Source: a virus (lineage: Duplodnaviria; Heunggongvirae; Uroviricota; Caudoviricetes). Taken from it: a DNA stretch of 20,485 nucleotides. Below the pieces are notes generated by a model. It was not told the origin of the DNA. It saw nothing but the letters and a program-made list of their open reading frames with translations, and made no database searches. Shown piece by piece: positions 2,396 to 19,849 of the stretch; the stretch's first letter is position 1, and the number at the start of each line of letters is the position of its first letter. Position numbers and translations under genes: made by a program. The stretch lies in the IMG/VR virus record IMGVR_UViG_2568526635_000006, positions 1 to 20,485 of that record; one strand, 5' to 3'.

Positions 2396-2412
2396 AAAAT
2401 TATTAGTGCAAT
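2396..2412 (-). promoter_or_regulatory. C1-operator-like 17-mer in the AT-rich divergent promoter region
   Basis: Minus-strand reading ATTGCACTAATAATTTT matches the recalled P1 C1 operator consensus ATTGCTCTAATAAATTT at 15 of 17 positions. Lies between the divergent operons that start at 2323 (-) and 2470 (+). Confidence 0.3.
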
Positions 2413-2469
2413 TTTGATTGTGAAATGTATCATTCTGCCCTTAAGTAGGTTCTTCACGAGGAAACAAAA

Positions 2470-2715
2470 TTGGCAGAACGTGTTGATGATGCAGAGCTGA
2501 GCATGAATCAGTTAGAAGCTCTCAAAGACATGGCCATCGATAACATCAGAAAGCAGGCACAGGTCGTGAGTCAGGTATTTACAGGTAAGTGTCGTTACTG
2601 CAATGAACCGATTGAATCAGGCATCTATTGTGACGCTGAGTGTGCGCAATGGCACAGGGAAGAGCAGGCAGCAAAACAGCGTAAATATGGCATGCGACCG
2701 GCAGGATTTGACTGA
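2470..2715 (+). CDS. TraR/DksA-family C4 zinc-finger protein
   Basis: TTG start 7 nt after GAGGAAA (alternative ATG at 2503). Contains CRYCNEPIESGIYCDAEC, a CxxC-x(n)-CxxC pattern typical of phage TraR/DksA-like proteins. Its stop overlaps the next start. Confidence 0.55.
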   Translation: MAERVDDAELSMNQLEALKDMAIDNIRKQAQVVSQVFTGKCRYCNEPIESGIYCDAECAQWHREEQAAKQRKYGMRPAGFD

Positions 2716-2717
2716 TT

Positions 2718-3296
2718 ATGTTGCGCTTTACTGAGGAAGAGTTTCAGGCTTTTAGTGAGCGTAGAAATAAGGGGCAGTCCAGGCCAAAAACCAAAAAGGA
2801 TCCATTCTTATCGCTTGCGCCGGTAAAAGAAGTTTCTCCACATGCGAAGGCACTTGCAGCACTGGCAAAGACCCCAGACCTGCGCGACGGAAATTGCGAG
2901 CACTTCGAGCAGGTTTTCATTTTTGATTACTTCGAACGCAAGCACCCTGACATCTATGAGCTGTTGCATGCAACGCCTAACGGAGGGAAACGTTCAAAAG
3001 CAACCGCCGGGAAAATGAAGGCTGAAGGGCAGAAAAAAGGTTATCCGGACATGAGTCTCGATAAAGCATGCGGTATTTATCACGGCATGCGAATTGAGCT
3101 TAAAGAACCAAATGGTAAAGCCCCGACGAAAGAGCAGATCGCCTGGATGCGCAGGCTTAGAGAGGAAGGTTACTACGTCGTTCTTGCGTATGGTGCAGAA
3201 CAAGCGATAACCGCCATCCTGGAATACATGAGCCTTAAAAAGGGTGAGGCTATTGAGCATGTATTGAACGGTGACAAGTGGTTGTTCGCTACGTGA
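2718..3296 (+). CDS. VRR-NUC domain nuclease (PD-(D/E)xK superfamily)
   Basis: C-terminal half has the VRR-NUC signature: HATPNGGKRS...GYPDMSL...YHGMRIELKEPNGK...EQIAWMRRLREEGYYVVLAYGAEQA. Confidence 0.75.
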   Translation: MLRFTEEEFQAFSERRNKGQSRPKTKKDPFLSLAPVKEVSPHAKALAALAKTPDLRDGNCEHFEQVFIFDYFERKHPDIYELLHATPNGGKRSKATAGKMKAEGQKKGYPDMSLDKACGIYHGMRIELKEPNGKAPTKEQIAWMRRLREEGYYVVLAYGAEQAITAILEYMSLKKGEAIEHVLNGDKWLFAT

Positions 3297-3362
3297 AATA
3301 ATAAATTAATTAGTGCATATGTGTTCTTTGATACAGCGCACATTAACATCGGGAGAATAATC

Positions 3363-3518
3363 GTGTCATCCAAGGCTAATTATGAATCGCTGGCATCGAT
3401 CATGCCGCGTAATGAACAGGAAGCAGATGCTGTAGTGGACCCGGTAATCGCTGAAATGAATGCTCGCCTGGAGGCTGAATTTGCAGCTGAGAATGAACAT
3501 ACCACCCAGGGCGACTAG
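3363..3518 (+). CDS. Small acidic hypothetical protein (about 51 aa from the GTG; the track ORF starts at 3321)
   Basis: GTG at 3363 lies 6 nt after GGGAGA; product is D/E-rich. No recognisable domain, and the region may instead be a leader. Confidence 0.3.
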   Translation: MSSKANYESLASIMPRNEQEADAVVDPVIAEMNARLEAEFAAENEHTTQGD

Positions 3519-16567: not shown

Positions 16568-16612
16568 ATTCGACGTTGATTAGTTGACATGGGCTAATCA
16601 GTAGGTGACAGG

Positions 16613-17065
16613 ATGTTACTTAACTGGCAGGGACGCCACTTCATGGAAATAAATCACTCACGAATAACATCGTACGAGATTGCGGATTACATGATCCGCA
16701 CTAAATCTCTTCTATCAGCGAAAGAACTCGCAGCAATTCTTGAAAAGGAATACCCGCATCTGGATGTCGATAAGCGCGATGTTTATCTGCGCTTAAAGGC
16801 TATCGCTGTGTCTAAGTATTCGTCTGTTTTGATTGATGACAGTACACGCCCACGTAGATTTCAGATCCACTCTCTGAATCCTGAATTCTTTCGCCGCAGT
16901 CGCGCTCCGCGCCGGTTTGATGAAAAACTCCAGAACGAACTCTATATGACGCAGGACGAAAAGGAACGCCGGGAGCACCAGCCTTGGGTAATGGCGCGTC
17001 AACTTTTCAATAAGGTGGTCCGTCAGCACCGTCATTACGGTAATGCCACATCCGCACGTATCTGA
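16613..17065 (+). CDS. lpa: Putative late-promoter activator (Lpa / gp10-like), about 140 to 150 aa
   Basis: Assigned by synteny (directly upstream of pacA, downstream of phd-doc) and by the C1-operator-controlled promoter, not by recognised sequence. Alternative start ATG 16643. Confidence 0.5.
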   Translation: MLLNWQGRHFMEINHSRITSYEIADYMIRTKSLLSAKELAAILEKEYPHLDVDKRDVYLRLKAIAVSKYSSVLIDDSTRPRRFQIHSLNPEFFRRSRAPRRFDEKLQNELYMTQDEKERREHQPWVMARQLFNKVVRQHRHYGNATSARI

Positions 17066-17151
17066 TTGATTGCTTGCCCGTTCCGGGCCTTTTGACATGT
17101 GACTTTCGTTACCCTCGCGTCAAAAAGAGTTTTATACGAAAGGAAGCATAA

Positions 17152-18345
17152 GTGACCTGGGACGATCACAAGAAGAATTTTGCTCGCCTGGCGCGAGATG
17201 GTGGTTACACCATCGCACAATATGCCGCCGAGTTTAATCTCAACCCAAACACCGCACGTCGTTATCTCCGTGCATTCAAAGAAGACACCGGAACAGCGGA
17301 CAGCCGTAAGCCAAATAAGCCTGTCAGGAAACCACTAAAAAGCATGATCATTGATCACGCTAATGATCAACGTGCAGGTGATCACGTTGTGGCTGAAATG
17401 GCTGAAAAACAAAGAGTTAATGCTGTTGTCAGTGCCGCAGTCGAGAACGCTAAGCGCCAAAATAAGCGCATAAATGATCGTTCTGATGATCATGACGTGA
17501 TCACCCGCGCCCACCGTACCTTACGTGATCGCCTGGAACGCGACACCCTGGATGATGATGGTGAACGCTTTGAATTCGAAGCTGGCGATTACCTGATAGA
17601 TAACGTTGAAGCGCGGAAGGCCGCGCGCGCTATGTTGCGTCGGTCCGGGGCCGATGTTCTGGAAACCACACTTCTGGAAAAGTCTCTTTCTCATCTCCTT
17701 ATGCTGGAGAACGCCAGGGATACGTGTATTCGCCTGGTGCAGGAAATGCGCGATCAGCAAAAAGACGATGATGAAGGTACTCCGCCTGAATACCGTATCG
17801 CGAGCATGCTAAACAGCTGTTCCGCGCAGATAAGCAGCCTGATCAACACCATTTACAGCATCCGGAATAACTATCGAAAAGAAAGCCGGGAGGCGGAAAA
17901 GCACGCTTTGTCTATGGGGCAAGCTGGCATTGTTAAGCTGGCATACGAACGAAAGCGTGAAAATAACTGGTCAGTGCTGGAAGCAGCTGAATTCATCGAG
18001 GCGCATGGCGGGAAAGTGCCGCCCCTGATGCTGGAGCAAATCAAAGCCGATCTGCGTGCTCCTAAGACAAATACCGATGATGAGGAAAGGCAAACTGCCG
18101 TCGGTGGCCCTTCTCTTGAAGATCTGGACAAAGTTGCGCGAGAACGGGCCGCCAACCGCCGCGCCGATGCTGCATTGTGGATTGAGCAACGTAGGGAAGA
18201 AATCGCCGATATCGTTGATACAGGCGGTTATGGAGATGTTGATACTGAAGGTGTATCAAACGAACCATGGCTGGAACAAGACCTGGACGAAGACGAGGAG
18301 GAAGACGAAGAAGTTACCCGCAAGCTATACGGGGATGATGATTAA
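17152..18345 (+). CDS. pacA: Terminase small (pac-recognition) subunit PacA, 397 aa
   Basis: GTG start 5 nt after AGGAAG. The P1-type pac site lies inside the gene, the length matches recalled P1 PacA, the C-terminus is acidic, and the stop overlaps the pacB start (TAATG). Confidence 0.85.
17344..17503. other. P1-type pac (packaging initiation) site inside pacA
   Basis: About 160 bp holding seven GATC-containing hexamers in a 4+3 arrangement: TGATCA x4 at 17345..17384 and TGATCG/TGATCA/TGATCA at 17475..17503, separated by about 90 bp. Each hexamer contains a Dam site. Confidence 0.85.
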
Positions 18346-19829
18346 TGGCCAGAAGTTGCGTAACGGATCCACGTTGGCGCGAGCTGGTGGCGCTATATCG
18401 TTATGACTGGATTGCTGCCGCTGATGTTTTGTTCGGCAAAACACCTACCTGGCAGCAGGATCTGATTATTGAGTCTGTGCAGGAACAGGGTAGCAAGACA
18501 TCTGTTTCGTCTGGTCACGGTACCGGGAAATCAGACATGACTTCTATCATGATCATGTTGTTCATAATCATGTATCCCGGTGCCCGCGCCATTATCGTTG
18601 CGAACAAAATTCAGCAGGTAATGACCGGTATATTCAAGTACATCAAGATAAACTGGGCTACTGCCACCAGCCGTTTTCCATGGCTTGCTGATTATTTTGT
18701 TCTGACAGAAACCGCTTTCTATGAGGTTACTGGTAAAGGTGTATGGACTGTAGTACCGAAGGGCTTTCGTCTGGGAAGTGAAGAAGCTCTCGCCGGTGAA
18801 CACGCAGATCATCTTCTGTATATTATCGATGAAGCCTCCGGTGTCAGTGATAGAGCTTTCGGTATCATCACCGGTGCTCTTACCGGACAGGATAACCGCA
18901 TCTTATTACTGTCACAGCCTACACGCCCAAGCGGCTATTTCTACGATACTCACCATAAACTGGCCAAGCGTCCTGGTAACCCTGATGGCGTTTATACGGC
19001 GATCACGCTTAACAGTGAGGAATCACCGCTGGTAACGCCAGCATTTATCAAAATGAAGCTGGCGGAGTACGGCGGGCGTGATAACCCTATGTACATGATT
19101 AAGGTACGCGGACTATTCCCTAAATCACAGGATGGCTTCCTTCTTGGACGTGATGAGGTTGAACGTGCGACGCGGCGGAAAGTCAAGATTGCCAAAGGAT
19201 GGGGCTGGCTTGCATGTGTGGACGTTGCTGGTGGTACGGGACGGGATAAGTCCGTTATCAATATCATGATGGTGTCCGGCCAGAGAAATAAACGCCGTGT
19301 AATCAACTATCGAATGCTGGAATACACAGACGTTACAGAAACGCAGCTTGCCGCCAAAATTTTCGCAGAATGTAATCCTGAGCGATTCCCAAATATCACC
19401 ATAGCGATAGACGGCGATGGGCTGGGTAAAGCAACAGCGGATCTGATGTACGAGTATTATGGTATTACCGTACAGCGTATACGCTGGGGTAAAAAGATGC
19501 ATAGCCGTGAAGATAAGAGCCTGTACTTTGATAAACGTGCTTATGCCAATGTTCAAGCCGCAGAGGCCGTAAAATCTGGTCGTATGAGACTGGATAAGGG
19601 TAATGAAACTATTGAGGAAGCGTCGAAAATCCCTGTAGGGATTAACTCCGCAGGTCAATGGAAGGTGATGAGTAAGGAGGATATGAAGAAAAAACTCAAC
19701 CTGCACTCACCAGACCATTGGGATACATATTGTTTCGCTATGCTGGCGGATTATGTTCCCCAGGATGAAGTGCTTAGCGTCGAAGACGAAGCGCAGGTTG
19801 ATGAAGCTCTGGCATGGCTTAATGAATGA
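18345..19829 (+). CDS. pacB: Terminase large subunit PacB, 494 aa
   Basis: Walker A-like [13 protein letters not shown] and Walker B-like [11 protein letters not shown]; length and position after pacA match P1 PacB. Confidence 0.88.
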
Positions 19830-19832
19830 ACA

Positions 19833-19849
19833 TTTGCTCTAATGAATTG
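19833..19849 (+). promoter_or_regulatory. C1-operator-like 17-mer immediately downstream of pacB
   Basis: TTTGCTCTAATGAATTG matches the consensus at 14 of 17 positions, 4 nt after the pacB stop. Confidence 0.35.

Follow-up and report, generated by a model that had tools for sequence, protein, structure and literature searches.

The mapping of the C1 operator network of phage P1 goes back to the late 1980s, and the reference genome carries the annotation. The stretch of DNA analyzed here (20,485 nucleotides, hereafter the window) contains six 17-nucleotide sequences resembling these operators, all lying at operon boundaries, which raises the question of whether they are genuine C1 operators, whether some of them serve a different regulator, and what a site without a P1 counterpart might control. 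The six flagged sites are very probably C1 operators: five correspond to operators already mapped in P1, and the sixth, which precedes a second antirepressor module, is a copy of a known type that had gone unannotated.

Source of the window and motif analysis

Judged by its sequence, the window derives from a P1-family phage-plasmid. Its bases 61-20485 share 100% identity with the E. coli plasmid RCS54_p, the closest match, which carries CTX-M-9 and other resistance genes, and its DNA is 96-98% identical to P1, RCS47, and 673R5. The c1 gene of RCS54_p is located 1.07 kb past the window end, thus outside the window itself, and encodes a repressor identical to P1 C1 (C1.100) at 280/283 positions (99%); the C1 of CP063732 is identical at 282/283. 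RCS54_p also encodes Coi and an Lxc-like “modulator protein”, and a single C1-type repressor is annotated in it, while extra regulators are present elsewhere on the element. The non-coding part of the window comprises 1501 nt (7%), and its intergenic DNA is slightly richer in AT (58% vs 53%).

The consensus used by the initial annotation, ATTGCTCTAATAAATTT, is the published one for P1 C1 operators, of which the whole P1 genome contains 22 (PMC8546580). Allowing up to 3 mismatches, a search with this consensus returns six matches in the window, at the same coordinates and on the same strands as first reported, each with 2-3 mismatches (14-15/17). In 100 dinucleotide shuffles of the window, the mean number of matches was 0.15 and the maximum 2, with none reaching 6. 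An independent weight matrix was trained on 12 P1 operators, all from outside the present region and taken from the “phage repressor C1” protein_bind features of the GenBank record AF234172 / NC_005856. This matrix recovers exactly seven sites, scoring 17.6-24.3 bits, whereas the next best sequence reaches 11.0; the scores are therefore bimodal, with a gap of 6.6 bits, and 0.023 sites would be expected in the window at the scores of the seven. When the non-coding composition is taken as background, 0.003 sites of at least 17.5 bits are expected in 1501 nt, against 7 seen. The original list of six is correct as far as it goes, yet incomplete, as a seventh site at 3303-3319 (minus strand) was overlooked because its 4 mismatches placed it below the cut-off applied.

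All seven sites lie in non-coding DNA (P = 1e-8 under uniform placement), in line with the claim that none is inside a gene; the sole coding overlap is at base 8161, with which the pap stop codon ends. A similar frequency in coding regions had been named as the observation that would point to chance, and the matrix found no site of such score in the 19 kb of coding DNA scanned. The 11-bit near-match is located within pap, and in P1 an unannotated 3-mismatch match occurs within pacB. Extended to the whole plasmid, the matrix scan yields about 20 sites, all on the P1 backbone; in the non-P1 resistance island (~47 kb), no sequence scores higher than 12.9 bits. The seven window sites, 2-4 mismatches from ATTGCTCTAATAAATTT, share the conserved operator core TGC(T/A)CTAAT, with G4→A in Op88 as the one change within it, and each of their departures from the consensus is also found in some annotated P1 operator. 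In a generic sigma-70 scan, promoter-like sites were fewer than in shuffled DNA, and Plpa alone was recovered, so that the scan is uninformative on the weak early promoters of P1; the other promoters described below are predictions made via P1 annotation or alignment.

Operators orthologous to those of P1

Six of the seven sites match P1 operators coordinate-exactly, with 2 of 102 operator bases changed (100/102 identical). Comparison with the P1 record, which annotates the orthologous sites as C1 operators and cites earlier operator depositions (e.g. M25414, M95666, X87824), identifies five of the six flagged sites, all at operon starts, as Op82, Op86a, Op86b, Op88, and Op94; four of these are identical to P1, and Op88 carries a G4→A substitution. 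The suspicion that the density of sites exceeds that of P1 is not borne out, since the homologous P1 interval contains the same six operators (Op82, 83, 86a, 86b, 88, 94).

O26 (former Op82; 2396..2412, minus strand, 24.3 bits), identical to P1, is located in the divergent gene 26/pmgL control region, and coordinates mapped from the P1 annotation place it across the predicted -10 of P2pmgL and -35 of P1pmgL. Oppp (former Op83; 3303..3319, minus strand, 20.6 bits), the overlooked site, lies between pmgM and pmgN and reads TATGCACTAATTAATTT, differing from P1 Op83 in 1 of 17 bases, at position 1, while the 66-nt pmgM/pmgN spacer has 8 further changes outside the operator. In the comparison with P1, this spacer is the only place where an operator is kept amid divergence; the kin are ~96-98% identical and their intergenic regions nearly the same, so that the conservation of these six sites carries little independent weight. 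OpmgRa (former Op86a; 6020..6036, plus strand, 20.7 bits) begins 2 nt past the pmgQ stop codon and overlaps the -35 of the predicted PpmgR, and OpmgRb (former Op86b; 6069..6085, minus strand, 21.6 bits) is inverted relative to it, 15 nt upstream of the pmgR start; both are identical to P1. The pmgQ terminator hairpin at 6045-6072 (-13.4 kcal/mol, z = -6.0) has the A-run of OpmgRb as its T-tail. OpmgT (former Op88; 8161..8177, plus strand, 22.1 bits) occupies the orthologous position with 1 difference from P1. Olpa (former Op94; 16526..16542, plus strand, 17.6 bits), identical to P1, precedes lpa (gene 10), which encodes the activator of the late promoters, and its final 3 nt fall within the -35 of Plpa (P94 in P1; 16540..16567, plus strand), a sigma-70 promoter (TTGCTA-16-TATTAT) supported by both the promoter scan and P1 annotation; the overlap reported earlier for this site thus corresponds to P1 Olpa/Op94 and Plpa. 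The ORF downstream of Plpa (16613-17065) matches Pfam BPP1_LPA (2e-57). The description of the sites as directly following a stop codon or lying within a promoter also holds, the sites at 6020, 8161, 16526, and 19833 beginning 0-4 nt past a stop codon and those at 2396 and 6069 lying in the promoter positions given above. By analogy with P1, whose experiments on C1 binding and repression are carried over here, all seven sites very probably function as C1 operators.

At Op88, the pmgT cluster found downstream in P1 is replaced in the window by a convergent type I hsdRSM operon. The A at position 4, a change in the conserved core, also occurs in P1 Op72b and is confined to the present sublineage; it could lower the affinity of the operator and would weaken the predicted P2pmgT -35 too. 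A tie between this substitution and the hsd replacement was considered and rejected, as the hsd-bearing phage 673R5 retains G4. The occurrence of P1 DNA at the flanks of type IC hsd genes rests on notes in the P1 record, a literature search having found no citable paper.

A probable Op51-type operator ahead of a second antirepressor module

The sixth flagged site (19833..19849, plus strand, 19.8 bits) begins 4 nt past the pacB stop codon, a place where P1 lacks an operator, and carries no operator annotation in any of the records examined. Each of its bases can be aligned with P1 Oc4/Op51 (P51a), and it aligns with the canonical immI operator of RCS54_p as well; on this alignment, the site is a homologue of P1 Op51 that heads a second c4-icd-ant module between pacB and c1. 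A predicted P51a-like promoter follows at 19847..19875 (plus strand; -35 TTGTGT, 17-nt spacer, -10 TACATT), its -35 overlapping the final 3 nt of the operator. The hexamers, weak enough that the generic scan of the window did not find this promoter, are both nearly invariant among relatives and align with those of P1 P2c4/P51a (TTGTAT / TATCTT), and the operator-to-promoter register is that of P1 Op51/P51a and Op94/Plpa. A putative second promoter at 19888..19917 (plus strand; TTGCGC-18-TATGCT), invariant in 8 relatives, aligns with P1 P1c4/P51b and would be P51b-like and operator-free.

Downstream, the module contains an isrK-family leader RNA element (19924..20002, plus strand; Rfam RF01394, 59 bits, E = 1.4e-10) and a C4 antisense RNA gene (20047..20134, plus strand; Rfam RF01695, 75 bits, E = 2.6e-13), the latter 214 nt from the operator, compared with 203 nt in P1. 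An icd-like ORF (20189..20410, plus strand) shows 73-75% DNA identity to P1 icd and is Icd-like in RCS54_p, with no match in a Pfam search. Of the second antirepressor gene, ant (20408..20485, plus strand; Ant in RCS54_p), only the 5′ portion lies in the window; the full protein has both an ORF6N and a KilAC/ANT domain and shares 56% identity with canonical Ant.

Conservation at the site resembles a footprint in 43 IMG/VR contigs. Across 25 haplotypes, 2 of 17 operator columns are variable, at positions that vary among genuine operators too, while variation affects 8 of 9 columns of the adjacent linker, with indels, and 6 of the 17 spacer columns of the promoter. The window copy has G12, found in 7 of the 43 contigs, where the majority has A12; this base could lower affinity.

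Alternative explanations

Intergenic DNA being somewhat richer in AT, the matches might be nothing but chance AT-rich 17-mers, and the near-match in pap and the unannotated match in P1 pacB indicate that similar sequences do arise within genes. This reading was rejected, and its probability is practically negligible: shuffled sequences never yield as many matches, exact matrix tail probabilities predict a minute fraction of a site where seven are seen across an empty score interval, and the two negative controls, coding DNA and resistance island, lack such sites. Hardly more credible is the suggestion that some sites belong to another DNA-binding regulator with a related motif, or that the consensus was faulty. 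The 3′ ends of several sites do depart from the consensus (TTCC, AAAAAA, GTATTG), and additional regulators are present elsewhere on the element; nevertheless, the deviating sites are base-identical to P1 sites annotated as C1 operators, and T1, G12, and G17 of site 19833-19849 occur in P1 Op53, Op94/Op99c, and Op2a. With one nearly P1-identical C1-type repressor annotated in RCS54_p, an operator density equal to that of P1, and sites mapping one-to-one onto the P1 annotation, neither a second regulator nor an unusual density is retained.

A more serious alternative holds that 19833-19849 is a non-functional scrap of Op51/P51a, the module being driven by its operator-free promoter, and that Op88 is likewise a vestigial orphan. 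Upstream of the same module, phage D6 has no P1-type operator (best 8 bits), and its homology with the window starts downstream of the operator, at the P51b-like promoter, from which it follows that the operator is dispensable for the module. The minority G12 base of the window copy, the Op88 core substitution with its predicted damage to the -35, and the replacement of the Op88 cargo (pmgT onwards) by hsd agree with decay, and since the carriers are all closely related, conservation could partly reflect recent ancestry. A scrap would not, however, be expected to stay nearly constant between a far more variable linker and spacer, to keep the P1 operator-to-promoter register, or to remain intact in a haplotype that has lost the pacB stop codon. 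Vestigial sites are for these reasons considered unlikely, and the Op51-type operator and C4 RNA in front of the second ant module suggest that this module is connected to the C1 switch, not simply carried along. We incline, by a modest degree, toward 19833-19849 as a working C1 operator, together with an orphaned Op88 promoter that could fire into hsdRSM.

Proposed regulation

In the prophage state, C1, aided by its corepressor Lxc, would occupy the seven 17-bp asymmetric operators. Each of these overlaps or directly follows a sigma-70 promoter, known or predicted, that heads a transcription unit, so that C1 would block RNA polymerase there. The units gated in this way would be 26/pmgL, pmgN-ppp, pmgR-pmgS (flanked by the inverted operator pair), the former pmgT unit, lpa, and the second c4-icd-ant operon; silencing of lpa would keep all late promoters off. 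Inactivation of C1 by Coi or Ant would then turn on these units together. As a copy of the Op51/P51a element, 19833-19849 would place the upstream promoter of the second immI module under C1, while the downstream operator-free promoter presumably maintains the supply of C4 antisense RNA.

If site 19833-19849 works, C1 would gate two distinct antirepressor circuits in RCS47/RCS54-type phage-plasmids, both equipped with a C4 RNA, an icd, and a diverged Ant of their own; this would amount to a doubled immunity switch whose second copy lies beside c1. The orphaned Op88 promoter would face the 3′ end of the convergent hsdRSM operon, and loss of C1 on induction could drive antisense transcription into the restriction genes.

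Comparison with known systems

The finding is correct but largely ordinary, as five of the six flagged sites are long-known P1 operators, and it matters little for discovery. Its practical value is for annotators: resistance genes are commonly carried by P1-like phage-plasmids, whose public records lack all of these operators. The P1 C1 operators (O26, Oppp, OpmgRa/b, OpmgT, Olpa; AF234172 / NC_005856) have the same 17-bp asymmetric consensus, the same gene-relative positions, a 99% identical repressor, and a similar, for the most part predicted, overlap with sigma-70 promoters; the window differs from them in G4→A of Op88, whose operon is swapped for the convergent hsdRSM cassette, and in position 1 of Op83.

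The modest addition is the unannotated Op51-type operator and C4 RNA ahead of the second ant module. Its predicted layout matches that of P1 immI (Oc4/Op51, C1-controlled P51a, P51b, c4-icd-ant), the operator reading TTTGCTCTAATGAATTG in the window module and AATGCTCTAATAAATTT in P1. Whereas P1 immI is located between sim and kilA, the window module lies between pacB and c1, and RCS54_p has a canonical immI as well. Rfam assigns the leader of the window module to isrK, not to c4-a1b1 as for the canonical immI, and the Ant of the window module has the ORF6N domain in the middle. Two short ORFs plus ant, lodged between pacB and c1, were described in RCS47-type P1-like plasmids (Venturini et al. 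2019, PMC6906374), and the window module is this same insertion. In that paper, the term “operator” occurs 0 times and C4 RNA is unmentioned; the C1 operator and RNA elements of the insertion are described in the present analysis. The second ant module between pacB and c1 is found in hundreds of plasmids.

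C1 operators and their P1 counterparts

The C1 repressor of phage P1 is reported to have 22 operators spread over the P1 genome, and in P1 monomeric C1, stabilised by Lxc, binds these asymmetric operators one by one and blocks the sigma-70 promoter that overlaps or adjoins each (PMC8546580; AF234172 annotation). With lpa repressed, the late promoters that depend on Lpa stay silent, and C1 itself is inactivated by Coi and Ant (PMC8546580; AF234172 annotation). The consensus used in the initial annotation, which is the published P1 one (PMC8546580), was scanned against the window with three mismatches permitted. 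This search with ATTGCTCTAATAAATTT returned exactly the six sites first proposed, on the strands proposed, while 100 dinucleotide-preserving shuffles gave a mean of 0.15 matches (maximum 2). A weight matrix built from twelve annotated P1 operators, none of them from the part of P1 that corresponds to the window, retrieved seven sites at 17.6-24.3 bits, the next best scoring 11.0 bits. From exact tail probabilities, 0.023 sites of ≥17.5 bits are expected in the whole window and 0.003 in its non-coding part, with the AT-richer composition of that part as background. All seven sites fall in non-coding sequence, which makes up 1501 bases (7.3%) of the window; under uniform placement this has a probability of 1e-8. 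Across all 140 kb of the plasmid this matrix picks out ~20 sites of ≥15.6 bits, every one in the P1 backbone, whereas the resistance island (~47 kb) scores no higher than 12.9 bits. A similar frequency in coding regions or unrelated genomes had been named at the outset as a sign of chance matches; neither in coding sequence nor in unrelated DNA does the motif reach such a frequency.

Six of these seven have known counterparts in the P1 annotation. When the "phage repressor C1" binding sites of the P1 record AF234172 are transferred by a constant alignment offset, they land exactly on O26/Op82 (2396-2412, minus strand), OpmgRa/Op86a (6020-6036, plus), OpmgRb/Op86b (6069-6085, minus), OpmgT/Op88 (8161-8177, plus) and Olpa/Op94 (16526-16542, plus). 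These are base-identical to P1 except Op88, which carries G4->A. The sixth is the orthologue of Oppp/Op83, TATGCACTAATTAATTT (3303-3319, minus), overlooked in the initial annotation because it has four mismatches to the consensus. The initial annotation is confirmed for its six sites and right in its core reading of C1 operators at operon heads, control of lpa included; its list falls short by Op83. Its suggestion that the sites are denser than in P1 finds no support, since the homologous P1 interval also holds six operators, Op83 included; nor does that of a second regulator with a related motif, as the mapped sites fall exactly on annotated C1 operators. Besides C1 (280/283 residues identical to P1) and Coi, the source-like plasmid codes for two Ant modules and an Lxc-like "modulator protein". 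The analysis shows the identity, orthology, statistics, geometry and conservation of the sites; by analogy with P1 the seven sites would act as its operators do, through C1 binding and repression.

Between Op86a and Op86b lies exactly the terminator hairpin of the pmgQ unit (6045-6072, plus; -13.4 kcal/mol, z = -6), whose T-tail is the A-run of Op86b on the opposite strand, so that terminator and operator have bases in common. Outside the window, ATTGCTCTAATTATTTG between cre and c8 of RCS54_p, an E. coli plasmid matching the window, scores 22 bits as a candidate C1 operator (1485-1501, locus L014). P1 has ATTGCTATAATTATTTG at this position (core C7->A), with no annotated operator; judged from these sequences, the site may be an operator kept in the RCS54_p lineage and decayed in P1.

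A predicted Op51-type operator in front of a second immI module

By sequence, the seventh site (19833-19849, plus) is an unannotated operator of the Op51 type at the head of a second immI module. P1 homology ends at 19831, the end of pacB; in P1 itself c1 follows 24 nt after pacB, and that gap holds no operator. The inserted module comprises an isrK-family element (19924-20002, Rfam), a C4 antisense RNA (20047-20134, Rfam), a downstream icd-like ORF (20189-20410, ORF call) and the start of ant (from 20408 onwards). The full second-module Ant has ORF6N and KilAC domains and 56% identity to canonical Ant. An ant insertion between pacB and c1 was noted in PMC6906374, which mentions no operator.

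In P1 immI, the last three bases of Oc4/Op51 overlap the -35 element of P2c4 (P51a), followed by P1c4 (P51b), c4, icd and ant. The window aligns block for block both to this stretch of P1 and to the canonical RCS54_p immI, sharing the operator, -35, -10 and P51b-like blocks. In the alignment the -35 is TTGTGT versus TTGTAT in P51a and the -10 is TACATT versus TATCTT; the predicted P51b-like promoter reads TTGCGC-18-TATGCT. The distance from the operator start down to C4 is 214 nt, versus 203 nt to c4 in P1. All consensus deviations of the site recur in annotated P1 operators: T1 (Op53), G12 (Op94, Op99c) and G17 (Op2a, Op94).

The pacB-immI junction is present in 272 PLSDB plasmids. Conservation was assessed in 43 IMG/VR contigs anchored on the leader just 3' of the site (25 haplotypes, the window included). 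Variable columns number 2/17 in the operator (position 1 T/C; position 12 A/G), 8/9 in the linker to the pacB stop, which also has indels, and 6/17 in the promoter spacer; the variant in the window, G12, is the minority one (7/43 contigs). Phage D6 has the same module without a P1-type operator, homology beginning at the P51b-like promoter, so the operator and P51a piece looks like a separable unit, present where the backbone around the module is under C1 control.

In IMG/VR haplotype h21 (one of loci L018-L061), a deletion at window 19827-19835 takes the pacB stop codon and linker; pacB would end at a TAA within the operator core (TGCTCTAAT), and the operator is intact. RCS54_p has two immI modules (locus L015, 39127-40719; window 19833-20485), each with its own predicted C1 operator, C4 RNA, icd and ant. 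Their C4 sequences have diverged, as have the Ant proteins, and the second leader matches Rfam isrK, not c4-a1b1. In two relatives (L008 and L012, 502-621; ~window 20051-20170), RefSeq annotates an ORF of 39 aa ("ash family protein") overlapping the C4 RNA gene, probably an annotation artefact on a non-coding RNA.

Op88 and the hsd replacement

A convergent hsdRSM operon now takes the place of the unit once controlled by Op88. G4->A also weakens the predicted P2pmgT -35 (TTGCTC to TTACTC), and with the unit replaced, Op88 may be a relic. The substitution is limited to this sublineage; the hsd-bearing phage vB_EcoM-673R5 retains G4. More speculatively, Op88 could still gate a short transcript with a 28-codon ORF (8261-8347), or antisense transcription into hsdR.

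That putative ORF (plus strand; MNTAFKIIMTAIYFWLFSITFGSIVAHR) is unannotated and hydrophobic, lies 3' of Op88 with an AGGAG Shine-Dalgarno, and occurs in P1 upstream of pmgT with three non-synonymous changes and one synonymous. The type I restriction-modification operon is complete (8426-14491, minus), with hsdM (520 aa), hsdS (422 aa) and hsdR (1038 aa, EcoR124_C domain), and replaces P1 pmgT-pmgV, upfM-O, hot, lxr and humD; 131 plasmids have this layout. A note in the P1 record points to matches between the junction sequences and DNA that flanks the EcoDXXI and R124 hsd loci. A strong predicted intrinsic terminator (8210-8232, minus; -16.8 kcal/mol), its T-run overlapping the predicted P1pmgT -10, would stop transcripts of the hsd genes immediately ahead of Op88. 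This hairpin is present in P1 too, where there is no leftward gene for it to end, a hint that the arrangement with hsd is older than that of P1.

Identity and gene order

By megablast the window falls in the genus Punavirus, with 97% identity across 97% of its length to vB_EcoM-673R5, 98% to RCS47 and JL22 (69% covered) and 96% to P1 (66% covered). The E. coli plasmids RCS54_p (LT985263) and CP129281 are 100% identical to window 61-20485. Gene order is 7-25-26, pmgL-pmgQ, pmgR-pmgS-pap, hsdR-S-M (minus strand, in place of P1 pmgT through humD), phd-doc-pdcAB, lpa, pacAB and the inserted module. Positions 1-60 lack a match in RCS54_p or P1; their match is to the terminal 58 nt of an element of the IS3 family (a fragment of transposase OrfB), which in phage phi456 has a different location. 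From this match, the source of the window appears to have an IS inserted close to the 3' end of tail gene 7.
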